DNA of 64,000 bases from an uncultured bacterium (GCA_964621645.1 CAZUMH010000002.1:8928-72927); one strand, 5' to 3'; positions 12,047 to 55,187 are shown, counted from the first letter of the stretch. Notes: generated by a model from the sequence alone, not told the origin. Program-made: numbers and translations.

Positions 12047-12271
12047 ATGCCCATTTTTGAGTATACCTGCGAGAAATGCGGCAAGACGACCGAATTTCTC
12101 GTGCGTTCAGAAAAAGATGAATTGGTCTGTTCCTGTGGAAGCAAAAATCTGAAGAAGAAATTTTCCGCTTTTGCTGTTTCTGATGGCGGAATGTCTGCTT
12201 CGGGAGGCTGTGCTGACGGCAGCTGCGGGCTGCCTTCTTCGCCATGTGCTTCCGGCATGTGCGGTCTATAA
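12047..12271 (+). CDS. FmdB-family zinc-ribbon protein with a Cys/Gly/Ser-rich tail
   Basis: N-terminal MPIFEYTCEKCG...CSCG zinc ribbon typical of the FmdB family; strong RBS AAAGGAGAAAACA. Confidence 0.6.
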   Translation: MPIFEYTCEKCGKTTEFLVRSEKDELVCSCGSKNLKKKFSAFAVSDGGMSASGGCADGSCGLPSSPCASGMCGL

Positions 12272-12321
12272 TCGCCACATCTCTCGGCTAAGAGTTGAGA
12301 GGGGACATTCTGTGTGAGTTG

Positions 12322-12366
12322 CGCCGCCGGGTGATGACCATTATGTGTTGGCCGGCGGCGTTTTTC
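12322..12366 (+). terminator. Terminator/attenuator-like hairpin between fmdB and osmC: 9-bp GC stem, 21-nt loop, T5 tract
   Basis: CGCCGCCGG ... CCGGCGGCG followed by TTTTT. Confidence 0.3.
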
Positions 12367-12402
12367 AATCGGAATCCGTTGTACAACGATGAGGTGCTGA
12401 AT

Positions 12403-12831
12403 ATGAAGGTTACCGTTAAACAGCTGAAGGGATTGACCTTTGCGGCCAAAGGTGAAAGTAATCACTGGCTTATGATGGATAACGCCGAGGAAAAGGGGGG
12501 ATCCGGGGCGGGTTCCAGACCCATGGAACTCATCCTGATGGGTCTCGGAGGATGCACGGGAATGGACGTGGCCTTTATCCTGAAAAAGAGCCGGGTTGCC
12601 TATGATTATCTCGAGGTTGAGCTGGAAGGGAAACAGGCTGAGAGTATCCCCCGGGTTTATGAGGAGATAACAATCAGGTTCATCATAGGCGGGCGTAATA
12701 TACCGGAGAATAAGGTGAAACAGGCTATTGATCTGTCAGCTGAAAAGTACTGTTCCGTCTCCAAGATGCTGGAAAAGTCAGTAAAGATAAACCATGACTA
12801 CCGTATCGTCGAGGAGGAGCAGGCTCAGTGA
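12403..12831 (+). CDS. OsmC/Ohr-family peroxiredoxin-like protein
   Basis: OsmC-like fold signature (two conserved Cys: GGCTGMD and KYCSVSKM); start ATG 12403 within the longer ORF 12295. Confidence 0.7.
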   Translation: MKVTVKQLKGLTFAAKGESNHWLMMDNAEEKGGSGAGSRPMELILMGLGGCTGMDVAFILKKSRVAYDYLEVELEGKQAESIPRVYEEITIRFIIGGRNIPENKVKQAIDLSAEKYCSVSKMLEKSVKINHDYRIVEEEQAQ

Positions 12832-13610
12832 GAATCGCTCTCTCGCAGATGACTGTTATCAAGGGTGAGCCGGAAGCAAACCTGGCGCGGGCAGCCTCCG
12901 CCGTCAGGCGGGCCGCGGATGCCGGCTGTAATCTCATCCTTTTGCCGGAATTCTGGGCCGTGGGGTTCGATATCAAGCGGATTAAATCCATGGCTGATCC
13001 CCTGGAAAGCGGAGTATTCGCCCAAATGTGCCGTTGGGCCAGGGATTTTTCTTTGGCAGTGGCGGGCACGCATCCCCGCTTGGATAAAGATAAGGTATAT
13101 AATACAGCAGTCCTCTACTCCGATCAAGGCGAACTGCTGGGCAGTTATGACAAGATGCATCTCTTCTCTCCCATGCAGGAGCACCGTTACCTTGCTCCAG
13201 GCCCGGTAATGCCCTCTCCGGTTTCGACTCCCTGGGGACAAATCGGGCTGGTTACCTGTTTCGATCTGAGATTCCCGGAACCGGTCCGGCGGCTGGCGCT
13301 TGCGGGGGCTAATGTGATTCTCATCCCGGCCTACTGGCCCCAGCCCCGTCTGCCCCACTGGTCCCTGCTCCTGCGCGCCAGAGCTTTGGAAAATCAAGTG
13401 TTCATGGCGGGATGCAACCGCGCTTCTGATCCGGGGGAGCGGGAATTCGGTCTCTCGGCCTGCATAGATCCGGCTGGAGAAGTGGTGGCGGAGGCGGGAT
13501 TTACCGAACTGTTGCTTGTGACCGATATCGATCTGGACAGAGTGACACGTATCCGGAAAGAATTTCCCGTTCTTTCAGCCAGGAGAAGCGGGATCTACGG
13601 AAATTTTTAA
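12828..13610 (+). CDS. Carbon-nitrogen hydrolase (nitrilase/omega-amidase superfamily)
   Basis: Catalytic E-K-C triad context (LPEFW, YDKMHLF, VTCFDLRFPE); 260 aa. Confidence 0.8.
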   Translation: MRIALSQMTVIKGEPEANLARAASAVRRAADAGCNLILLPEFWAVGFDIKRIKSMADPLESGVFAQMCRWARDFSLAVAGTHPRLDKDKVYNTAVLYSDQGELLGSYDKMHLFSPMQEHRYLAPGPVMPSPVSTPWGQIGLVTCFDLRFPEPVRRLALAGANVILIPAYWPQPRLPHWSLLLRARALENQVFMAGCNRASDPGEREFGLSACIDPAGEVVAEAGFTELLLVTDIDLDRVTRIRKEFPVLSARRSGIYGNF

Positions 13611-46795: not shown

Positions 46796-47149
46796 TTACT
46801 GTTCAGCGGCCGGTTCTGCAGGTAATTCTTCTTCTTTGTCGGCTGATTCCTCGGTGACCAGTTCATCGATGTCGATATTGCGCAACCGGCTGATCTCTTC
46901 CCGTAGTTTACGGTTTTCCCGCTGCAGTTTGAGTATTGCGCCTTTTTGTTTCAGGATATTGAATATCGAAACCAGCGCCCAGAAAAGCAGACCGATCCCA
47001 AAGGAGATATAGAGAAGGATGTAAAGCGGTATTTGGGGGGAAGTCCAGTTAATGATAGTTACAGATGCTGAAGTATCCTGATTCTGCAGGGCAAAACCCA
47101 GCACCGCGAGTATGATAATTGCTCCAAGAATCCAACGTACTATCCACAT
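46796..47149 (-). CDS. lapA: LapA (YciS)-like inner-membrane protein (DUF1049)
   Basis: Two TM helices then a short coiled coil (LQRENRKLREEISRL); immediately upstream of lapB as in E. coli. Confidence 0.6.
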   Translation of the reverse strand: MWIVRWILGAIIILAVLGFALQNQDTSASVTIINWTSPQIPLYILLYISFGIGLLFWALVSIFNILKQKGAILKLQRENRKLREEISRLRNIDIDELVTEESADKEEELPAEPAAEQ

Positions 47150-48504
47150 AATTTCCTCCGGGATTTAGGTGCGGAATAAACCGAATCGGAAGCAAGAGGG
47201 ATCCCCCGCAAGGTTGATCCGGCCAGAGAAGTGATCCGCACTATCGTACGTTCACCGGGATGCAGATCCCGGCCGGGAAATATAACTGCCTGGTCGGTAC
47301 GGCTCCGGCCCATCCACTCGGACGGATTCTGTTTGCTGGGGATTTCGACCATTACCTCCACGGTCTTTCCGATCAGTTCTTTTTTTATTTCCAGTGAAAT
47401 ATTTCTTTGCAAATCAATAAGCAGCCGCAGGCGCTCCAGCCGGATTTCATCGGGCAGCTGATCCGGCATCGATGCGGCAGGTGTACCGCTGCGGGGCGAG
47501 AAATGGTAGGTGAAGGCGTCCTGAAAACGCACTTCGCTCACCAGGCGGCAGGTATCTTCGAATTCTGCTTCAGTCTCGCCGGGAAAGCCTACCATAATAT
47601 CCGTAGTCAGGGCGACATCCGGTATTACACGGCGAATATTCGCCACCAGGTTCAGGTAATCCGCGGAAGAGTACCCGCGATTCATGCGCCGCAGGATTCG
47701 GTCGGATCCAGCCTGAAGCGGCAGATGAATATGTTCGCAGATATTATCCCCGTCGGCGATCACCTCTAACAGTTTTGGAGAAAGATCTTTTGGGTGCGAG
47801 GTCAGAAAGCGAAGCCTGGGAATTGCGGCAGAAGAAGAAATCCGTCCCAGCAGTCCCGGAAAGTCGATCACGCCGTCCTGATAGGAGTTCACGTTCTGTC
47901 CAAGCAGTGTTAATTCACGATATCCCTGCCGTTCCAGGAGTGCTATCTCCCTCAGAATTTCATTCGCAGGGCGGCTGCGCTCCCTTCCCCGGGTGTAGGG
48001 AACGATACAGTAGGAACAGAAATTATTGCAGCCGCGCATGATGGTCAGCCAGGCTGAAAGCCCTCCTTCACGCCGGGGAGTGATGCCTTCGTAGAGTTCC
48101 TTGTGGTCCAGACGGGAGTGGCAGGAGGCAGCTGATGTTCCGAGAAGTTCGGGAAGGTCCCGGTAGGAGTCGGGTCCGACCACCAGATCCAGGTGGGGTT
48201 TTATGGTCAGAAGTTCATCTCCCAACCGCTGGGCCATACAGCCGATGACTCCGAGGCGGCGGCCCTTTTTCTTCTCTTTCCAGCCGGCCAGAGAGGATAT
48301 CCGTCCCAGGGCCCGGTCTTCAGCGTGCTGCCGAACCGAGCAGGTATTGATAAGAAGGAGGTCCGCCGTTTCTGGTGAAGCAGCCTTGCGCCAGCCGTTT
48401 CTCGCCAGGATGCTTTCCACTATTTCCGTGTCGCTCTTGTTCATCTGGCAGCCATATGTCTCAATGAAAACAGCCGGCTGTCCTATTTGTCTTGATTCAT
48501 CCAT
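47140..48504 (-). CDS. miaB: tRNA-i6A37 methylthiotransferase MiaB (radical SAM MTTase). Start is ATG at 48504; the ORF track extends to 48624.
   Basis: MTTase N-domain (FIETYGCQMNKSDTE), radical SAM CNNFCSYCIVPYTRG, TRAM domain. Confidence 0.9.
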   Translation of the reverse strand: MDESRQIGQPAVFIETYGCQMNKSDTEIVESILARNGWRKAASPETADLLLINTCSVRQHAEDRALGRISSLAGWKEKKKGRRLGVIGCMAQRLGDELLTIKPHLDLVVGPDSYRDLPELLGTSAASCHSRLDHKELYEGITPRREGGLSAWLTIMRGCNNFCSYCIVPYTRGRERSRPANEILREIALLERQGYRELTLLGQNVNSYQDGVIDFPGLLGRISSSAAIPRLRFLTSHPKDLSPKLLEVIADGDNICEHIHLPLQAGSDRILRRMNRGYSSADYLNLVANIRRVIPDVALTTDIMVGFPGETEAEFEDTCRLVSEVRFQDAFTYHFSPRSGTPAASMPDQLPDEIRLERLRLLIDLQRNISLEIKKELIGKTVEVMVEIPSKQNPSEWMGRSRTDQAVIFPGRDLHPGERTIVRITSLAGSTLRGIPLASDSVYSAPKSRRKLCG

Positions 48505-48640
48505 GAGTAGTAAAATGTAGCGGAAAAAGGTGGTAAATGCAAATTTTTTCTTAGGCCGGGGCAGAGTCTGCGGCTCGATATGTCTGGAGATAGTGGGAAG
48601 ACGAATGCCGGCGCATCCGATCAACCGCTCCAGGAAGTGA

Positions 48641-49138
48641 TCAAGGCTGTATTTGTTTTACATAGATATACTTGGAGTCTCCGGGGGCGTAAAAATCCGG
48701 GAGCACGGCGGCTTCCATATAACCGCAGCGCAGGTAGAAGCTGCGGGTGGGCCGATAGAGATCGAGCCCGGAAGTCTCGATGTAGATCCTCGTGCCTCCC
48801 AGGTCTCGGATCCGCTCTTCCGTCCGGACGATGAGCACCTTACCGAGGCCGGCCCCCTGGGCGTCGGGATGAACGGCGATCCAATAGAGATCGTAACTGG
48901 AGCTGGTGACCGGGATAGGGCCGAAACAGGTATATCCGAGCACGATCCCGCCCCGCTCGGCAAAGATAAAGTGGTAGCCGCTGGCCAGATCCTTTTCCAG
49001 TCTTTCGCGGGCCAGTTCAGCGGCGAGGTCGATCTCATCCTCCGAAAAATACTTGGTGGCGCCGACAATCCGGCGGATGGACGCTTCGTCATCCGGTCCG
49101 ATGGTTTCACGATAGCTGATTTCTTCTGGTACCGCCAT
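48641..49138 (-). CDS. GNAT-family N-acetyltransferase (165 aa)
   Basis: Acetyl-CoA motif A (QGAGLGKVLI) and motif B; 32-nt overlap with the upstream gene. Confidence 0.75.
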   Translation of the reverse strand: MAVPEEISYRETIGPDDEASIRRIVGATKYFSEDEIDLAAELARERLEKDLASGYHFIFAERGGIVLGYTCFGPIPVTSSSYDLYWIAVHPDAQGAGLGKVLIVRTEERIRDLGGTRIYIETSGLDLYRPTRSFYLRCGYMEAAVLPDFYAPGDSKYIYVKQIQP

Positions 49139-50906
49139 TTGTTTTCTCCTTTGCCTGACCCGGATGAACCTGGTGACAACCCTGCCAAAGTCCCGTGAAA
49201 AAAGAGCGGGCGTTTATGCCGAGAGAACGGACACGATAGCCTCCTTCCTGGACGACAATAATTGGAAGGCCCAGCGATCCGATCATACGGCCGTTCTCCT
49301 GAAAATCTGCAGCCCGCAGATTCCAGGAACCGGTGGGATCCCCCCTGGCGGTGTCAAGCCCCAGGGCTACGACCAGAAAATTCGGCTCATACCGCCGTAT
49401 TCGCCGCAGGGCCACCTCCAAAGCCCGCCGGTATCGTTCACCACTGATATTTTCTTCCAACGGAATATTGAGGTTATATCCGGTCCCGTCATCAGAGCCA
49501 CGCTCTTCGGAAAATCCGCTGAAATAGGGATAGGTGAAGCGGGGGTGCCCGTGGATCGATACAGTGAGCACGTCAGGGCGCTGGTAAAATATCATCTGCT
49601 GGCCGTTGCCGTGATGATAATCAATATCGAGGATGGCCACCTTGCCGAAGCCGCTGAGTAAGTGTGCCGCGATGGCGGTGGAATTGAAATAGCAGAATCC
49701 TCCGAAAACATTTGCTTCCGCGTGATGACCCGGGGGACGAACCAGAGCGTAGGCGATACGGTGACCTTCAAGAAGACAGTGAGCCGCGGTGAGGGTGCAG
49801 TCCACGGCCCGTTTTGCGGCCAGGAAAGCGTTATGATTGAGAGGGGTAAAGGTGTCGATGCAGTAGTAACCCGCTCTGATGAAAAGTTCTTTGGGGGGAC
49901 GGGCCTGGTTCCGGATGGGAAAGACATACGGGTAAACCGACTTGCCGGCGGGGAGCTTGCGGCATACGGTCTGCAGGTAGTGTACGAAGCGGGTGTCATG
50001 TACAGCGGTGATGTGGCGCTCGGCGAATACCTTCGGTTTACGGTTTTCAAAGAGACCTGTGGGAATAATTTCCTTCAGAATAGCATTGACCCGCACCGGG
50101 GCCTCCACATAGCCGCGATCATGGACCTGATGGATTTCATGCCGGTCGTTTACTACCAGGGCGATCCTGCTGTCCATGGCGAAATATTTGTTTGTCCGGT
50201 GTGTTCCCGTGATCTTGCTGTATTTTGGAGCGCGGAGGCGGATCGGGTTGTCCTGGAAGGAGTTCACTACTGTGTCAATGTACCCCTCGGGACAGACCGT
50301 GCCGTACTTTCGTTCCAGGATGGCCCAGACGATGGCACGGGCCTTTTTTTGTGAAAGGGGGATACCGCTGCCCAGATCATCGAAGACAAGGTAGGGGGGG
50401 CAGTCATCTCCCGGGGTCAGAGGAGTTTCATATTTTGTCCCTGTAATCGGTCTGGCGCCATAGCGTTCGTAGAAACGCAGACGGGCGGCGTTTTGTTTGA
50501 CATGATCCGGATCGCGGCAGAGATCCGCATCATCGGGAAGGCATTCGAAGAAGAGGCCGGTAACATCCAGTTCCCGGGCTGTATCGCGGACGATTTCATA
50601 AAGGGCCCCTCCAATTCCCCGTCCCGTCTTCTGCTGCGCCGCGGATATGTAATCCAGATAACAGAAACGCACATCGGCGGCATGCAGCAGAAGGGCGAAT
50701 CCTTTCACCCTCCTCTTTTCATCCTCTGCCACGATCAGCATAGTACGGAAGCGGTATTTCAGCGGATTGAGCAGTTTATGCGGCAGTTCGTCGATATCCT
50801 CTTCGGGCAGCTCATAAAACTGAGTCCTCAGGATCTGCTGTACCTGGGAGATCGCCTCCTTGTTAAGGGGAAGCGTGTTATCGTAGATACGCCTAACGTG
50901 GAACAT
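49107..50906 (-). CDS. Fusion protein: N-terminal GNAT acetyltransferase-like domain + C-terminal histone-deacetylase-family (AcuC/acetylpolyamine amidohydrolase-type) Zn deacetylase
   Basis: GNAT core (GFALLLHAADVRFCYLDYISAAQQKTGRGIGGALY); HDAC motifs LVRPPGHHAE, ILDIDYHHGNGQQ, GLDTARGDPTG, VVQEGGY. Confidence 0.8.
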   Translation of the reverse strand: MFHVRRIYDNTLPLNKEAISQVQQILRTQFYELPEEDIDELPHKLLNPLKYRFRTMLIVAEDEKRRVKGFALLLHAADVRFCYLDYISAAQQKTGRGIGGALYEIVRDTARELDVTGLFFECLPDDADLCRDPDHVKQNAARLRFYERYGARPITGTKYETPLTPGDDCPPYLVFDDLGSGIPLSQKKARAIVWAILERKYGTVCPEGYIDTVVNSFQDNPIRLRAPKYSKITGTHRTNKYFAMDSRIALVVNDRHEIHQVHDRGYVEAPVRVNAILKEIIPTGLFENRKPKVFAERHITAVHDTRFVHYLQTVCRKLPAGKSVYPYVFPIRNQARPPKELFIRAGYYCIDTFTPLNHNAFLAAKRAVDCTLTAAHCLLEGHRIAYALVRPPGHHAEANVFGGFCYFNSTAIAAHLLSGFGKVAILDIDYHHGNGQQMIFYQRPDVLTVSIHGHPRFTYPYFSGFSEERGSDDGTGYNLNIPLEENISGERYRRALEVALRRIRRYEPNFLVVALGLDTARGDPTGSWNLRAADFQENGRMIGSLGLPIIVVQEGGYRVRSLGINARSFFTGLWQGCHQVHPGQAKEKTNGGTRRNQLS

Positions 50907-51885
50907 TCGTCACCCCCAGAGAATCCTCCAAAATCCTTTCGATAACCTTGTCATACGGCAGAGCGGCTCTTTCCCCGGCGGCGATAAAGCCGCTGTCCGG
51001 AGAGATGCAGGGATTGGCATTGACTTCGAGCACGAAAGGGTTCCCGGCGGCATCGACCCTGATATCGACCCGGGCATAGCCCCGCAGAGAGAAAAGGTTC
51101 CAGCAGCGCAGTGAAATTTCTCTCAGCCGGTCGATGAGATCATTGTCCTCGGGATTAAAATCGAAAGAGCGGACCGTATGATGATATTCAAAGGAGGACG
51201 AATCCCACTTTGCTTCATATCCGACCAGCCAGGGTTTGCCTTCCGGGTAATCCTGAAAGGTCATCTCGGCAGGCGGAAGCACTTCCGGTCCCTCACTGCC
51301 GGCCAGCAGAGAAATGTTGAATTCCCGGCCGTGGATATATAATTCCGCGAAACACTCACCGTAGCGGTTCATCCGCTCGGCCAGAACAGAAGGAAGATGT
51401 TTGACATCAGAGACGATAGCTTCCTCGTCCAGTCCCACCGAGGCGTCTTCGTTTACCGGTTTGATGATGAAAGGCGGCTTTATCCCGGGATTGTTCCCGA
51501 GTATCTCTTTTCCTCCGGCCCAGGGGGGAGTGGGGATGCCTCCGGCCCGGAGCCGCTCTTTCGCCAGCAGTTTGTTGGTGGTCAAATAGAGAGCCTCACT
51601 GCTCGCGCCCGTGAAGGGGAGCCGCAGCTCCTCCAGCAGGGCGGGGGCGAAATAGATGAAGCGGCCGGCTCCGCCGATGGATTCGACCAGATTGAAGACG
51701 ATCTCCGGTGTGAATCGCAGCAGTGCTTCCCTGGCCTCTAGCAGGTTGAGCGAGAGGGGCAGGTGTTCCACCTCATATCCCAGTTTTGTCAGGGCCTTGG
51801 AGACATGGTCCATCTGCACCAGGACGTCCTGTTCATCTTCCGGCGAGTCACAGGAGACCTGGTTGAAGAGAATCACGGCTTTCAT
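50893..51885 (-). CDS. ATP-grasp ligase of the D-Ala-D-Ala-ligase family (paralog A)
   Basis: Ddl-like N-domain, ATP-grasp fold motifs (FIIKPVNEDASVG, RVDIRVDAAGNPFVLEVNANPCIS); 4-nt overlap with paralog B. Confidence 0.75.
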   Translation of the reverse strand: MKAVILFNQVSCDSPEDEQDVLVQMDHVSKALTKLGYEVEHLPLSLNLLEAREALLRFTPEIVFNLVESIGGAGRFIYFAPALLEELRLPFTGASSEALYLTTNKLLAKERLRAGGIPTPPWAGGKEILGNNPGIKPPFIIKPVNEDASVGLDEEAIVSDVKHLPSVLAERMNRYGECFAELYIHGREFNISLLAGSEGPEVLPPAEMTFQDYPEGKPWLVGYEAKWDSSSFEYHHTVRSFDFNPEDNDLIDRLREISLRCWNLFSLRGYARVDIRVDAAGNPFVLEVNANPCISPDSGFIAAGERAALPYDKVIERILEDSLGVTNVPR

Positions 51886-52874
51886 AGAAGGGCCGCTTTG
51901 ACCTTGACCCTTTCCATGGCGCTTTCCAGAATCATTTTAAAAAGCTGCCGGTAAGTAATGCCGTAATACGTACAGATAATAGGGAGGTCGGAATGCTCGG
52001 GATGGATGCCCGCCAGGGGGTTGAGCTCCATCACGTTGGGGACGCCCTTGTCATCGACCCGGAGATCGATTCGGCCTGCGTCCCGACACCCGAACGTGCG
52101 CCAGGTTTCCAGGGCGATTTCCACGGCCCGGAGGGCAAGCTCATCATTGACGGGAATATACCCCACGAATTCTTCGCATCTTTCCTTGTTCACATAAGAA
52201 TAGGCGAATTCTTCGGCGCCGCCTCTTAGCACGATCTCGACAACTCCAACAGAGCGTGCTGCGGGTCCCGTACCTACCAGACCTACGGTAAACTCCCGTC
52301 CCGGCAGATAGGTCTCCACCAGTACGGGCTGCCGGTAGGCAGCCAGAAGCCGGTCACAGACATCCCGCAGCTGCTCCCGGGTTTCAACCCTGGAAGAGGA
52401 ATCGATGCCTTTTCCCGTTCCCTCCGCCACAGGTTTGGCAAATAGAGGGAAGGGTAGGGTGATCGTTTCCACGTCTTCGATAACGCGGATTTCCTGAAAA
52501 TCAGGAGTGGGCAGACTGAAATCCCGCAACACTCTCTTGGTCATGGTTTTATGCAGAGTGAGTGCGAGGATGAGGGGTCCAGAAAATGTATAGGGGATGT
52601 CGTAGGCATCCAGCAGAGCAGGCACTTGCGCCTCCCGTCCGATGCCCCGCAATCCCTCGGCGATATTGAAGACCAGATCCCAGTGATCGCCCGAGGCCAG
52701 ACGTTTGGTCAGGCTCCAGATATTTCCGATCCGGTCTGTTTCGTGTCCCAGCTCCCGCAAGGTGTTCTCGATATTTTCGATGGTGGAGATACGGTCAAAT
52801 TCCGCCGTTTCTTCTTCACCATAGCCCAGGTCGAGATAATCCTGGCGCAGGTCGTAGGTAATGCCGATAATCAT
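51882..52874 (-). CDS. ATP-grasp ligase of the D-Ala-D-Ala-ligase family (paralog B)
   Basis: FNIAEGLRGIGREAQVPALLDAYDIPYTFSG (Ddl N-domain), FAKPVAEGTGKGI, RIDLRVDDKGVPNVMELNPLAG. Confidence 0.75.
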   Translation of the reverse strand: MIIGITYDLRQDYLDLGYGEEETAEFDRISTIENIENTLRELGHETDRIGNIWSLTKRLASGDHWDLVFNIAEGLRGIGREAQVPALLDAYDIPYTFSGPLILALTLHKTMTKRVLRDFSLPTPDFQEIRVIEDVETITLPFPLFAKPVAEGTGKGIDSSSRVETREQLRDVCDRLLAAYRQPVLVETYLPGREFTVGLVGTGPAARSVGVVEIVLRGGAEEFAYSYVNKERCEEFVGYIPVNDELALRAVEIALETWRTFGCRDAGRIDLRVDDKGVPNVMELNPLAGIHPEHSDLPIICTYYGITYRQLFKMILESAMERVKVKAALL

Positions 52875-53830
52875 AGCAGCTGCCTTTCTTCCGCTACCAG
52901 GCAGTCAGCCAGCGGGTCGCCGATAGAACCTTCCGGGTCGGGATACATGTAGATGTTCCCTTCATAGTTGCGCAGCAGCAGATTGTCTCCAGAGCGGCCG
53001 GCCACGTATTCGGGGAGAAGGGGAATCTTGCCGCCTCCGCCGGGGGCGTCGACTACGAAAGAGGGGACGGCATACCCTGAAGTGAATCCTCTCAGGCCGG
53101 CAATGATTTCCAATCCTTTTTCAACCGTGGTGCGGAAATGCGAGGTGCCGCGCACCGGGTCGCACTGATAGAGATAATAAGGCCGGACTCTGATTTTCAT
53201 CAGGCCCTGGTTCAGCCGGGTCATGGTCTCCACCCTGTCATTGACACCTTTGAGAAGCACGGTCTGGCTTCCCAGAGGAATGCCGGCGTCCGCCAGGCGT
53301 CGACAGGCTTCCGCTGTCTCGGGAGTCAGCTCATCAGGATGACTGAAATGAATGCTCATCCATAGGGGATGATATTTATGCAGCATCTCCACCAGCTGTT
53401 TCGTGATGCGTTGGGGCAGCACTACCGGCACTTTGGTCCCGATGCGTATCACTTCAACGTGAGGGATTCGCCGCACTTGCGAGATGAGCCATTCGAGTTT
53501 ACTGTCGGAGATGGTGAGCGGGTCACCGCCGGAAAGGAGAACATCCCGCACCTCAGGATGCTGTCTGATATACGATATGGCGTTTTCCCAGTACTGAGGA
53601 CTAATGTGGTGCATTTTTCTGACATCGCCCACGATGCGGGAGCGGGTGCAATAGCGGCAATAGACAGCGCAGAATCCCGTTACCAGAAAGAGAACCCGGT
53701 CAGGATAGCGATGCACAATTCCGGGGACAGGGGAGTCGTTGTCTTCCGAGAGCGGATCTTCCGCTTCCGATGGAGTGATATGATATTCATTATTGCTGAT
53801 AATAACCGTACGGCGTACCGCCTGGTTCAC
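52871..53830 (-). CDS. kamA: Lysine 2,3-aminomutase (KamA family, radical SAM/PLP), C-terminal about 320-aa portion. The gene continues upstream in another frame (feature 53827-54288), implying a frameshift or sequencing error.
   Basis: HRYPDRVLFLVTGFCAVYCRYCTR (CX3CX2C), PLP-Lys region, ITPYYASILDP encoded just upstream in the same frame. Confidence 0.85.
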   Translation of the reverse strand: MNQAVRRTVIISNNEYHITPSEAEDPLSEDNDSPVPGIVHRYPDRVLFLVTGFCAVYCRYCTRSRIVGDVRKMHHISPQYWENAISYIRQHPEVRDVLLSGGDPLTISDSKLEWLISQVRRIPHVEVIRIGTKVPVVLPQRITKQLVEMLHKYHPLWMSIHFSHPDELTPETAEACRRLADAGIPLGSQTVLLKGVNDRVETMTRLNQGLMKIRVRPYYLYQCDPVRGTSHFRTTVEKGLEIIAGLRGFTSGYAVPSFVVDAPGGGGKIPLLPEYVAGRSGDNLLLRNYEGNIYMYPDPEGSIGDPLADCLVAEERQLL

Positions 53831-54288
53831 ATCGGCCGGGTCGAGGATGCTGGCATAGTAGGGAGTGATGGAAAAAGGCAGTGGATTCTTGTGATCCAGA
53901 ATAGCTTCGATTTCTTCCGGTTGATTTTCGTTAAGGTCTGGATGTCTCTGATACGATTTTTTACCTGCCAGTGCCAGTCATTCCACTGGCTGTCCGGCAC
54001 GTTGGAAAAAAACAACCGACGAAATTGTCGTGTTCGTTTACTGATGACAAACGGTGGTTTTGATTTTGGTATTATTTTAAATTTATTGTGCGGGAAGGAT
54101 CCAGGAGTCACATTCAGGGCTCTTTGGACAAGAGCGGATTCTTCTGAGCGACGTCCATCAAGGACTTGATTTGAAAGGCGTTCCCCAAAGGGAGGATTTA
54201 CAAAGTGTTTGGTTTTGGCAGCACCGGTTAAACTGGTACCACCACCAGGAGGTTCGTCTTTGTCGTCAATAGAAGTTGTTGTTTTCAT
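53827..54288 (-). CDS. kamA: N-terminal portion of the same KamA gene in the -1 frame, plus an about 80-100-aa low-complexity N-terminal extension
   Basis: WNDWHWQVKNRIRDIQTLTKIN matches the conserved KamA N-terminal helix (WNDWxWQ...R...L); strong RBS GGAAGGAG before ATG 54288. The frame switch lies at about 53921-53931 in an A4/T4 run. Confidence 0.55.
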   Translation of the reverse strand: MKTTTSIDDKDEPPGGGTSLTGAAKTKHFVNPPFGERLSNQVLDGRRSEESALVQRALNVTPGSFPHNKFKIIPKSKPPFVISKRTRQFRRLFFSNVPDSQWNDWHWQVKNRIRDIQTLTKINRKKSKLFWITRIHCLFPSLPTMPASSTRPM

Positions 54289-54487
54289 GTTTCATTGTTC
54301 TCCTTCCTTCGAACTGCATTAAAGGATGTTAAATTGCCGTTTTATATAAAACAAATATAGTTTTTTTTAACAAAAAAGCAAGAGAAAACGTTATAAAATC
54401 CGTTTCCCTGAAAAAAATATTTTACAATCTTTCAGGACCTGAACACTTTCCCGGAGGCGTTAATTTTTATAAAAACAAAATTTCCCT

Positions 54488-54575
54488 TGACATTCCCATA
54501 AAAGTTTTGTTTATTTAATCGAATCCCTTGAAATTCTTTAAAATTCTTAGAAATCCCTAAGAATACAGGAAATCT
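54488..54575 (+). promoter_or_regulatory. dcw-cluster promoter region upstream of mraZ, with a -35-like TTGACA and direct repeats (AAATTCTT x2; GAATCCCTT/GAAATCCCT) that are candidate MraZ operator repeats
   Basis: TTGACA at 54488-54493; repeats between 54513 and 54560, directly upstream of mraZ. Confidence 0.3.
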
Positions 54576-54587
54576 CCGGAGCTCGAT

Positions 54588-55187
54588 ATGCTCTGTTTTA
54601 CAGGAAAATCCAAATTTACTGTTGATGCGAAACGCAGGGTAAATATTCCCGCTTCCGCTATTCTGGAACTGTATAAACAGAGCCAAGAGTACAAGCAGGA
54701 GGTCACCGGGGAAGCAGGGAATAATGAGATAAAAGAGAGTGAGGCGATCAAGAAGTTCAAGGAGTCGGCCATTATTTTTCATCTTACCAGGGGGCCGAAC
54801 GACTGTCTCTTCGTCTATCCCCGGGAAGTATTCATGGAAAAGGCGGCACGGCTCAGCGCTCACTTCGGATCCCGCGGCACCGATGATGAAGCACGGCGAT
54901 ATTTTCTGGAAACGATGGCGGATGCGCATCCAGTGCGCTGTGATCAACAGGGCAGGGTAACCGTTCCGCAAGAACACCTCGATTACGCGAAAATCAGTGA
55001 TCAGGTTCTGGTTGTCGGCGCTTTTGATCACCTGGAAATATGGTCCCCGGACGTATATGGGGCCTTTATCTCCGGAGGCAAGACGTCATCACAGGAGCGC
55101 GTCAAGCTGTTTGGCTGGGCGGAGCAAGAATCGGCGGCACATGGATCCTCTGACAGACACATTCCATCTCCCGATTCTGGTCGATGA
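54588..55187 (+). CDS. mraZ: MraZ transcriptional regulator, unusually long (199 aa) with an insertion between its two repeats
   Basis: Two MraZ repeats with DxxxR motifs (VDAKRRVNIP; CDQQGRVTVP). Confidence 0.85.
   Translation: MLCFTGKSKFTVDAKRRVNIPASAILELYKQSQEYKQEVTGEAGNNEIKESEAIKKFKESAIIFHLTRGPNDCLFVYPREVFMEKAARLSAHFGSRGTDDEARRYFLETMADAHPVRCDQQGRVTVPQEHLDYAKISDQVLVVGAFDHLEIWSPDVYGAFISGGKTSSQERVKLFGWAEQESAAHGSSDRHIPSPDSGR

Follow-up and report, generated by a model that had tools for sequence, protein, structure and literature searches.

Several described systems make beta-lysine compounds or N-acetylated small peptides. AblA/AblB of methanogens and KamA/YodP of Bacillus subtilis produce N-epsilon-acetyl-beta-lysine. 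The Ngg/AsnO pathway makes N-acetylglutaminylglutamine amide, with a GNAT and an ATP-grasp domain fused in Ngg and with AsnO as the amidotransferase. Mammalian NAT8L and RIMKLA make N-acetyl-aspartyl-glutamate. Here, we describe a locus from an uncultured bacterium that combines elements of these systems, located in a DNA stretch of 64,000 nucleotides (the window). We propose, at roughly even chances, that it is one copy of a widespread four-enzyme module, KamA-G1-G2-GNAT2, which would convert L-lysine into an N-acetylated beta-lysine peptide or pseudopeptide. No curated family model, source annotation or searchable paper (mostly without subscription journals) was found to assign the cluster, in agreement with the earlier claim that this gene combination is not a characterised pathway.

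Downstream of kamA, the window contains four minus-strand open reading frames (Table 1), with successive overlaps, including kamA/G1, of 4, 4, 14 and 32 nt. A previous reading of the same DNA from the sequence alone had reported a set of five overlapping genes. Our ORF and domain calls reproduced the genes, their domains and the overlaps, but not the description of kamA as an intact single ORF. None of the five proteins matched a family among the PADLOC anti-phage defence models.

Table 1. Features of the locus (positions in the window).
Feature	Position	Strand	Description
E12-P13-P14-G15 motif, KamA N-terminal tail	54244..54255	(-)	E-P-P-[G/S] near-invariant among 56 homologues
kamA 5' part, frame A	53936..54288	(-)	N-terminal tail and WNDWHWQ..RIRDIQ segment; homology to cluster-type KamA up to ~53936
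kamA lesion, approximate site, 10-nt deficit	53930..53940	(-)	Three-frame translation and homologue alignment
kamA 3' part, frame B (-1 vs frame A)	52871..53935	(-)	Radical-SAM/PLP catalytic core
G1, Ddl-family ATP-grasp ligase	51882..52874	(-)	330 aa; Dala_Dala_lig_C
G2, second Ddl-family ATP-grasp ligase	50893..51885	(-)	330 aa; Dala_Dala_lig_C
GNAT::APAH fusion, accessory gene	49107..50906	(-)	599 aa; Acetyltransf_1 and Hist_deacetyl
GNAT2, small acetyltransferase, core component	48641..49138	(-)	165 aa; Acetyltransf_1; PDB 2R7H family

A relative of G1 is encoded in the genomes of at least 597 species. The carriers are mostly anaerobic bacteria from more than 10 phyla, including Desulfobacterota, Planctomycetota, Bacteroidota/Ignavibacteria, Acidobacteriota, Spirochaetota, Fibrobacterota, KSB1 and Calditrichota. 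Neighbourhoods were counted for the best 80 G1 loci, with the loci that had enough flanking sequence as denominators. The kamA gene preceded G1 in 66 of 73 genome loci, G2 came next in 63 of 69, and GNAT2 was present in 56 of 63. All four core genes occurred in the fixed order kamA-G1-G2-GNAT2 in 49 of 57 loci (86%). Hence, kamA passed the check, set beforehand, of co-localisation with paired Ddl-like genes in other genomes. A few genomes encode G1 without the rest of the cluster (L025, L033, L058 and L064). According to their record titles, many carriers originate from fresh water, peat, soil or groundwater, which disfavours a purely salt-driven osmolyte.

The KamA protein consists of LAM_C and Radical_SAM domains and scored 365 bits against TIGR00238 (cut-off 199). 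Alignment to the solved enzyme of C. subterminale (2A5H) showed that C125, C129 and C132 of the CxxxCxxC motif and the PLP-binding lysine K337 are kept. The same applies to R134, D293 and D330 (in CTR, YQCD and VVDAPGGGGK), the lysine-specific substrate residues in the published structure. KamA is thus supported as a predicted lysine-type aminomutase, and the earlier assignment as lysine 2,3-aminomutase holds at every lysine-specific residue of 2A5H. The best NCBIfam model for the frame-repaired KamA was AblA (TIGR03820), at 498.1 bits below the equivalog cut-off of 525.4. Intact homologues also fell short of this cut-off (478.4, 503.9 and 482.2 bits) and matched only positions 1–361 of the 417 in the AblA profile. 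The EpmB model TIGR03821, which has a cut-off of 369.3 bits, gave 256.7. Cluster-type KamA proteins nearly all have an N-terminal tail, which is variable except for the E-P-P-[G/S] motif. Among 56 homologues the Glu is conserved in 96% and the two prolines in 100% and 93%, and [DE]PP is found in 53 of 58 cluster-type proteins. The motif is absent from both 2A5H and the AblA profile.

The kamA gene of this genome, previously described as encoding one product, has a broken reading frame. Its span of 1418 nt (52871..54288) is not divisible by three and contains no single ORF; a frame change splits it into ORFs of 153 aa (53827..54288) and 319 aa (52871..53830). The frame-A ORF supplies the N-terminal ~120 residues of KamA and continues past the region of homology to a stop at 53827. 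The first start codon in frame B is a GTG at 53830, yet homology begins already at ~53935. The WQ and ITPYY codons are 95 nt apart here, whereas the C. subterminale LAM and 53 of 57 homologues have 105 nt (35 codons) at this place; kamA therefore lacks 10 nt near 53935–53940. No other split genes are visible in the 64-kb window. Either kamA has recently become a pseudogene or the assembly contains a local error. Because of the missing 10 nt, the first step of the pathway has probably been lost in this genome, unless the gap is an assembly error, and the pathway as a whole may be inactive here. Annotation of this genome should mark its kamA copy as disrupted.

G1 and G2 are paralogues with 26% identity. 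Both belong to the Ddl family of ATP-grasp ligases, as the sequence-only reading had recognised, but they are not ordinary Ddl enzymes, because their scores are far below the Ddl cut-offs (NF002378: 140.4 bits for G1 and 110.7 for G2, cut-off 243; TIGR01205: 107.6 and 93.9 bits, cut-off 245.65) and because substrate positions have changed. The ATP/Mg catalytic residues of Ddl (in E. coli DdlB, K97, K144, E180, R255, D257, E270 and N272) are kept by at least 90% of the members of each ligase family. In contrast, the substrate-site residues E15, S150, Y216 and S281-L282 are not retained as such: S150 is replaced by T in G1 and A in G2, and L282 by D and G, respectively. Y216 corresponds to a gap or E231 in G1 and to W in G2, where the alignment of the loop is uncertain; a Glu resembling E15 is possibly retained one position off. 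With the same uncertainty in the loop, G1 has invariant acidic residues where the alignments place Y216 and L282 of DdlB. The AF2 model of G1 (pLDDT 90) has a Ddl fold, with Foldseek hits to Ddl structures at E 1e-21, TM 0.7–0.8 and 19–26% identity. G1 is the most conserved component of the cluster (57–69% identity across phyla). This unusually high conservation and the E-P-P-[G/S] tail of KamA would be compatible with a macromolecular partner or carrier no less than with a free metabolite. The label 'D-alanine--D-alanine ligase' on these proteins is wrong, which matters for genome annotation.

The best NCBIfam match of GNAT2, two homologues and the fusion was RimI, at 39–52 bits below the cut-off of 86. 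No AblB model was among the NCBIfam matches of GNAT2, the two homologues and the GNAT of the fusion at E ≤ 0.01. GNAT2 is related to PDB 2R7H, a structural-genomics GNAT whose deposited name, 'putative D-alanine N-acetyltransferase', is a guess. In two lineages G2 and GNAT2 are fused in a single ORF (L013 and L062), and a triple fusion occurs in L045.

The remaining gene encodes an N-terminal GNAT (about residues 1–230) followed by a Zn-deacetylase of the acetylpolyamine-amidohydrolase type. The fusion scored 248 bits against PF00850 (Hist_deacetyl; cut-off 27.9), and the closest solved relatives of its deacetylase domain are acetylpolyamine amidohydrolases (6PHR, 9GKZ, 3MEN and 3Q9B; E 1e-73 to 1e-60). 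The motifs GHHAE, DIDYHHGNG, GLDTARGDP and QEGGY are kept in at least 95% of 120 homologues. The catalytic Tyr, the HH dyad and the zinc-binding residues (D-x-H and D) are likewise retained. The fusion gene is present in only 13 of 62 loci (21%), and in Desulfuromonas carbonis it is located far from kamA, following a MarR/OEP/MFP/MFS efflux operon. The fusion, previously listed among the five genes of the cluster, is thus an accessory gene outside the conserved core. Therefore, protecting-group chemistry by acetylation and deacetylation, raised earlier as a possibility, is unlikely to be obligatory, and the usual end product probably contains the acetyl group.

Together, these results suggest the following pathway. 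KamA would convert L-lysine to beta-lysine, as predicted from its conserved substrate residues. G1 and G2 would each form one amide bond via an acyl-phosphate, as in Ddl, in view of their retained ATP/Mg residues. G1 probably takes the cationic beta-lysine partner, if its acidic pocket is read correctly from the uncertain loop alignment. The G2::GNAT2 fusions suggest that GNAT2, in acetylating a free amine, acts immediately before or after G2. The usual end product would keep the acetyl group, and is probably a cytoplasmic compound with a solute-like, polyamine-like or storage role. In about one fifth of the clusters, including this one, the fusion most likely serves turnover or recycling, by removing or moving the acetyl group that sits on the aminoalkyl chain. 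We can only guess at the order of the steps and at the partner(s) that would be joined to beta-lysine. We favour a small molecule because no conserved transporter, precursor-peptide or target-protein gene was found in the flanks of the cluster.

An alternative explanation, which we consider unlikely, might be that the ligases decorate a macromolecule, placing beta-lysine, subsequently acetylated, on a protein, a peptidoglycan precursor or a different polymer of the envelope. The ATP-grasp D-aspartate ligase of Enterococcus, which adds a side-chain residue to UDP-MurNAc-pentapeptide, offers a model. Ddl is the closest family, and the identity of about 60% among G1 proteins across more than 10 phyla is what contact with a conserved macromolecule would lead one to expect. 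The operon described here also adjoins the dcw cluster: it is flanked by LapB, LapA and MiaB on one side and by MraZ, RsmH and FtsI on the other, a neighbourhood that had been pointed out earlier. However, the same adjacency to dcw, lapAB and miaB was not seen in other loci, and it carries no functional weight. Moreover, no mur, fem, flippase-type or target gene is conserved nearby, and G1 and G2 have the size of small-molecule Ddl-type ligases.

Alternatively, the product might be a cationic oligopeptide of beta-lysine that acts as an antibiotic or binds nucleic acids, for which GNAT2 would provide self-protection and the deacetylase activation. Streptothricin acetyltransferases confer self-protection in this manner, by acetylating a beta-lysine amine. 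A pair of ligases would be able to assemble beta-lysyl chains, the deacetylase belongs to a type that unmasks aminoalkyl amines, and the efflux operon preceding the fusion gene in D. carbonis would also fit. Yet, an exporter is not conserved with the cluster, the deacetylase required for activation is missing from ~80% of the clusters, and GNAT2 was not matched by streptothricin-acetyltransferase models. The very broad, vertical-looking conservation is also unlike that of a typical antibiotic cluster. Hence, this explanation appears quite improbable.

The tail of KamA raises another alternative, modelled on the amino-group carrier system LysW/LysX. The acidic E-P-P-[G/S] motif might serve as an acceptor or docking arm in a flexible tail, where an ATP-grasp ligase would tether the intermediate. 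Conservation of this motif in an otherwise variable tail of nearly all cluster-type KamA proteins, its absence from 2A5H and the AblA profile, and the fact that carboxylates are targets of ATP-grasp enzymes are in line with this idea. However, KamA retains all residues that bind free lysine (at the carboxylate, at the alpha-amine via PLP and at the epsilon-ammonium), which indicates that its substrate is not tethered. Furthermore, the motif may just as well serve for docking or cause polyproline stalling, and we know of no Ddl-type enzyme that acylates a protein side chain. A carrier-arm pathway therefore seems very unlikely. We also see little chance for the related proposal that the module, shared by anaerobes of more than 10 phyla, builds a new class of beta-lysine metabolite or modification, in its most far-reaching form with the KamA tail as a built-in carrier or docking arm for Ddl-type ligases; if true, these would be the first Ddl-family enzymes acting on a protein-tethered substrate.

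Finally, an ordinary AblA/AblB pathway to N-epsilon-acetyl-beta-lysine, with the Ddl-like genes as merely adjacent cell-wall paralogues, would agree with AblA as the best model for KamA and with a GNAT in the same operon, but is disfavoured as extremely improbable by the fixed gene order of 49 of 57 loci, which puts G1 and G2 between kamA and GNAT2, the G2 to GNAT2 fusions in two lineages, the scores of both ligases far under the Ddl cut-offs, the 478–504 bits of intact KamA proteins against the AblA cut-off of 525.4, and the lack of an AblB match at E ≤ 0.01 for GNAT2 or the fused GNAT.

If the proposed reading of the four-enzyme module is right, hundreds of mostly uncultured anaerobic species share an undescribed route to a beta-lysine compound. 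The identity of the product would add a class of metabolites (a solute, a cofactor-like peptide or a polyamine-like compound) to the physiology of anaerobes and new substrate specificities to the Ddl fold. It would also give a function to the structural-genomics protein 2R7H and explain a widespread acetyltransferase::deacetylase fusion.

Compared to known systems, the locus resembles AblA/AblB and KamA/YodP in that a lysine-type aminomutase with all lysine-binding residues and a GNAT are encoded in one operon. It differs from AblA/AblB by two conserved ATP-grasp genes between these two genes, by a GNAT2 that lacks an AblB match, and by a KamA that scores below the AblA cut-off, carries the additional E-P-P tail and lacks the last ~55 positions of the AblA profile. 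As in EpmB/EpmA, which beta-lysylates EF-P, a KamA-family aminomutase would supply beta-lysine to a dedicated ligase. However, the ligases here are ATP-grasp enzymes rather than a LysRS paralogue, the EpmB score is below cut-off, and no LysRS-like EpmA partner was found among the conserved neighbours. Routes to EF-P modification that use ATP-grasp enzymes are absent from a recent review (2026; PMC12856214).

G1 and G2 share the fold and the ATP/Mg catalytic residues of the Ddl/VanA family, which implies amide-bond formation via an acyl-phosphate. Yet, they are only 19–26% identical to this family, with scores below cut-off and altered substrate positions, and their genes are linked to kamA instead of mur or dcw genes. 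The whole C-terminal domain of the fusion matches the acetylpolyamine amidohydrolases, including their catalytic and zinc residues. Whereas those enzymes stand alone, this domain is joined to a conserved GNAT of 230 aa, often inside the kamA cluster. With Ngg/AsnO and NAT8L plus RIMKLA, the module would share the combination of acetylation by a GNAT with ligation by an ATP-grasp enzyme to yield an N-acetylated small peptide, and in some members (L013 and L062) a GNAT and an ATP-grasp enzyme form one polypeptide (G2::GNAT2). In contrast to Ngg/AsnO, no amidotransferase is conserved in the neighbourhoods. In contrast to both pathways, the ATP-grasp enzymes are Ddl-type instead of RimK-type, and the building block would be a beta-amino acid made by a radical-SAM enzyme.

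Our results show that the cluster is highly conserved, but that its core is smaller than first proposed. The sequence-only reading had described five genes. Four of these, namely kamA (lysine 2,3-aminomutase), the Ddl-like ATP-grasp ligase genes G1 and G2, and the small acetyltransferase gene GNAT2, were conserved together in 49 of 57 loci, whereas the GNAT::deacetylase fusion was present in only 13 of 62 loci and is accessory. These counts were obtained by tblastn of the window proteins against the best 80 G1 loci in other genomes (L numbers below), and included only loci with enough flanking sequence. kamA was located immediately upstream of G1 in 66 of 73 loci, G2 downstream of G1 in 63 of 69, and GNAT2 downstream in 56 of 63. 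Hence, the co-localisation of kamA with paired Ddl-like genes extends to other genomes. The order was invariably kamA-G1-G2-GNAT2, with the fusion either before or after GNAT2.

A scan for G1-specific motifs, using one genome per species, yielded at least 597 loci. The best 80 of these were from Desulfobacterota (Desulfobacterales, Desulfobulbales, Syntrophales), Bacteroidota/Ignavibacteriales, Planctomycetota, Spirochaetota, Acidobacteriota, Myxococcota, Fibrobacterota, Krumholzibacteriia, WOR-3 and Neomarinimicrobiota. The protein collection contains thousands of close G1 relatives (64–75% identity among the best 120), whose sources include KSB1, Calditrichota, Krumholzibacteria, Deltaproteobacteria and Acidobacteria; those with a name are annotated solely as 'D-alanine-D-alanine ligase' or 'ATP-grasp domain-containing protein'. 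The nearest relatives are KSB1- and Calditrichota-type MAGs. A lone G1 (58–63% identical) occurs in some genomes of Polyangiaceae, Spirochaetaceae and Phycisphaerae (L025, L033, L058, L064), where kamA, G2 and GNAT2 are all missing within 10 kb and the neighbours gave no hint of function.

The flanks of the examined loci contained no other broadly conserved gene, including no transporter and no obvious precursor or target gene. As an exception, about 14 Desulfobacterota-type loci (L084, 4200-6193; L078, L021, L042, L036, L073, L059, L075, L031, L010, L016, L007, L018, L011) carry a sigma-54-type response regulator and a protein of ~75 aa just upstream of kamA. The latter has a core of G[VI][VI]IPxxWDxxG...DExEY...EVEVxG and no Pfam match. 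The window has neither of the two.

In the window, a tight gene series on the minus strand fills 48641 to 54288. The overlaps of 4, 4, 14 and 32 nt described earlier agree with the ORF coordinates, and the domain calls were upheld by Pfam and NCBIfam: LAM_C and Radical_SAM with KamA subfamily TIGR00238 for the aminomutase, Dala_Dala_lig_C for both ligases, the GNATs, and Hist_deacetyl (248 bits in the fusion, next to its weak GNAT match). The envelope and dcw flanks also proved correct, with LapB, LapA and MiaB downstream and MraZ, RsmH and FtsI divergent upstream. Neither sigma-54 promoter nor terminator signals around the operon exceeded chance, and since no terminator-like site lies between the operon and miaB, read-through into miaB-lapA-lapB is possible. 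The longest miaB ORF (47140-48624, minus) has a TTG start 17 nt past the GNAT2 stop and an N-terminal extension of ~40 residues. A 199-aa ORF in the divergent promoter region (54432-55031, minus) runs antisense to mraZ/rsmH and is unlikely to represent a gene.

Features of the cluster in the window
Feature	Position	Strand	Description
D-E-P-P-G motif, KamA tail	54244..54258	minus	E-P-P-[G/S] of cluster-type KamA
ORF (kamA, first piece)	53827..54288	minus	153 aa
ORF (kamA, second piece)	52871..53830	minus	319 aa
G1	51882..52874	minus	330 aa; Dala_Dala_lig_C
G2	50893..51885	minus	330 aa; Dala_Dala_lig_C
GNAT::deacetylase fusion	49107..50906	minus	599 aa; weak GNAT + strong Hist_deacetyl
GNAT2	48641..49138	minus	165 aa; GNAT domain

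Contrary to the initial description, kamA is not one ORF: its span (52871..54288) of 1418 nt is no multiple of 3, and it consists of two ORFs in two frames. Three-frame translation placed the N-terminal ~120 residues (to ...WNDWHWQVKNRIRDIQ) in one frame and the remainder (LNENQPEEIEAILDHKNPLPFSITPYYASILD...) in the -1 frame, while alignment with 14 homologues identified both pieces as one protein. Within 53870-53965 (minus), the spacing from the WQ to the ITPYY codons is 95 nt, whereas 53 of 57 homologues and the solved C. subterminale enzyme have a spacing of 35 codons (105 nt). Hence, 10 nt are absent near 53935-53940 (minus). A homopolymer slip was rejected as the cause of the frame change. 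Programmed frameshifting or recoding was rejected as well, because the deficit is 10 nt instead of 1, and because residues downstream of the sole slippery-looking run (A AAA AAT) are still in the original frame. The first start codon of the second frame is a GTG at 53830, and a product from this start would be without the conserved N-terminal third of KamA. No other large ORF of the window is broken, so that the assembly appears sound overall, and the other four cluster genes look intact. The lesion arose by recent inactivation of the gene or is an error of the assembly at this site; owing to it, the pathway may be dead in this genome.

With the two frames joined, the repaired KamA aligned to the C. 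subterminale lysine 2,3-aminomutase (PDB 2A5H; E 6e-136) and retained the CxxxCxxC cysteines, R134, D293, D330 and K337. In the published structure, these residues serve as ligands of the iron-sulfur cluster, the substrate carboxylate and epsilon-ammonium group, and PLP. Their retention indicates lysine, and neither arginine nor glutamate, as the substrate. AblA was the best-scoring curated model, although its score of 498 bits lies below the cut-off of 525.4; three intact homologues also remained below the cut-off (478–504 bits) and covered profile positions 1–361 of 417. By its sequence, the cluster KamA is a distinct clade near AblA. Lysine fermentation was rejected, since the conserved neighbours of the cluster included neither a beta-lysine 5,6-aminomutase nor the genes of later steps.

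The cluster-type KamA proteins have an N-terminal tail of 35–100 aa (a median of 81 residues ahead of WxxWxWQ among the L001-L078 homologues), which is missing in 2A5H and in the AblA profile. The tail varies in sequence, but its motif E-P-P-[G/S] is near-invariant (E 96%, P 100%, P 93%), and 73% have an extra Glu 3 residues before it. This motif may serve for docking, act as an acceptor arm or cause polyproline stalling.

The two ligases are not ordinary Ddl enzymes. G1 (140 bits) and G2 (111 bits) scored far below the Ddl cut-off of 243, share 26% identity with each other and 19–26% with solved Ddl structures, and are altered at Ddl substrate positions. The structure of G1 was modelled with confidence as a Ddl fold (pLDDT 90). 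In an alignment with E. coli DdlB, the G1 and G2 families retain K97, K144, E180, R255, D257, E270 and N272, and are altered at S150 (T/A), Y216 and L282. In pairwise alignments, which are uncertain in the loops, the Y216 position is occupied by an invariant Glu in G1 (E231) and Trp in G2, and the L282 position by an invariant Asp in G1 (D296) and Gly in G2. Given this loop uncertainty, the acidic pair is only a hint at a cationic G1 partner, which would probably be the beta-lysine moiety.

GNAT2 falls into the PDB 2R7H family (E 3e-41). 2R7H is a solved structural-genomics GNAT, whose deposited name, 'putative D-alanine N-acetyltransferase', probably reflects adjacent Ddl-like genes and not an assay. 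GNAT2 matched no AblB model in NCBIfam (E<=0.01). In two unrelated lineages, G2 and GNAT2 form a single ORF (L013, 11636-13219; L062, 11017-12618), and these fusions suggest that GNAT2 would act adjacent to G2. In L045 (12049-14295), the deacetylase fusion is further joined to GNAT2 in one ORF.

The family of the deacetylase fusion is widespread (62–68% conserved among the best 120), and the fusion is commoner among the closest relatives of the window than in the loci overall. For 21 of its best 120 homologues, the longest contig had the same length as for a best-120 G1 homologue, which hints indirectly at co-location. In the cultured Desulfuromonas carbonis (L082, CP015080; 4969-11749), the fusion directly follows a MarR regulator and an OEP/MFP/MFS efflux operon, at a locus without kamA, G1 and G2. 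Its occurrence away from kamA marks it as an independent module that joins the cluster only sometimes. In L001, on a 6.56-Mb ENA contig, G2 and the deacetylase gene are separated by an inserted gene for a YitT/DUF2179 membrane protein (12216-13118).

The earlier statement that this gene combination is not a recognised pathway still holds. None of G1, G2, GNAT2 and the fusion is covered by a specific model in NCBIfam release 20, source annotations of the homologues are generic, and no description of the gene set was found in the full-text papers searched, which leave out most subscription journals, so that an earlier one may exist. The cluster genes are not mentioned in a D. vulgaris fitness paper, and a 2026 review of EF-P modification (PMC12856214) lists no ATP-grasp route. 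An anti-phage defence system was rejected, as PADLOC gave no match.

At the sequence level, the cluster combines a lysine-specific aminomutase, two catalytically equipped amide-forming non-Ddl ligases, a co-travelling GNAT and an optional APAH-type (acetylpolyamine amidohydrolase) deacetylase. Lysine would be converted to beta-lysine, two ATP-dependent amide bonds would be made, and one amine would be acetylated. Because GNAT2 is core and the deacetylase only accessory, the acetyl group most likely belongs to the normal end product, and its proposed role as a transient protecting group is not likely; the fusion enzyme would serve turnover or editing. We give roughly even chances to this scheme of beta-lysine formation, two ligations and acetylation, with a product like an N-acetylated peptide solute.

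Decoration of peptidoglycan or another macromolecule is unlikely; the envelope genes beside the cluster in the window speak for it, the lack of a conserved target gene across loci against it. Somewhat less probable is a cationic beta-lysine oligopeptide with acetylation as self-protection, and a carrier-arm pathway via the KamA tail seems more improbable still. The plain AblAB pathway with unrelated Ddl neighbours is very improbable, as the ligase genes accompany kamA elsewhere. A purely osmotic role is doubtful as well, since many carriers are, by their source titles, from fresh water, peat, soil and groundwater.

All components are from known enzyme families, which places the pathway within beta-lysine and N-acetyl-beta-lysine metabolism, as a variant. 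N-acetylated peptide solutes are made by a GNAT and ATP-grasp ligases in other systems, namely NAGGN in bacteria and NAAG in mammals. An acetylated beta-lysine peptide would resemble these in its logic of GNAT plus ATP-grasp ligases, and would extend the AblA/AblB scheme.
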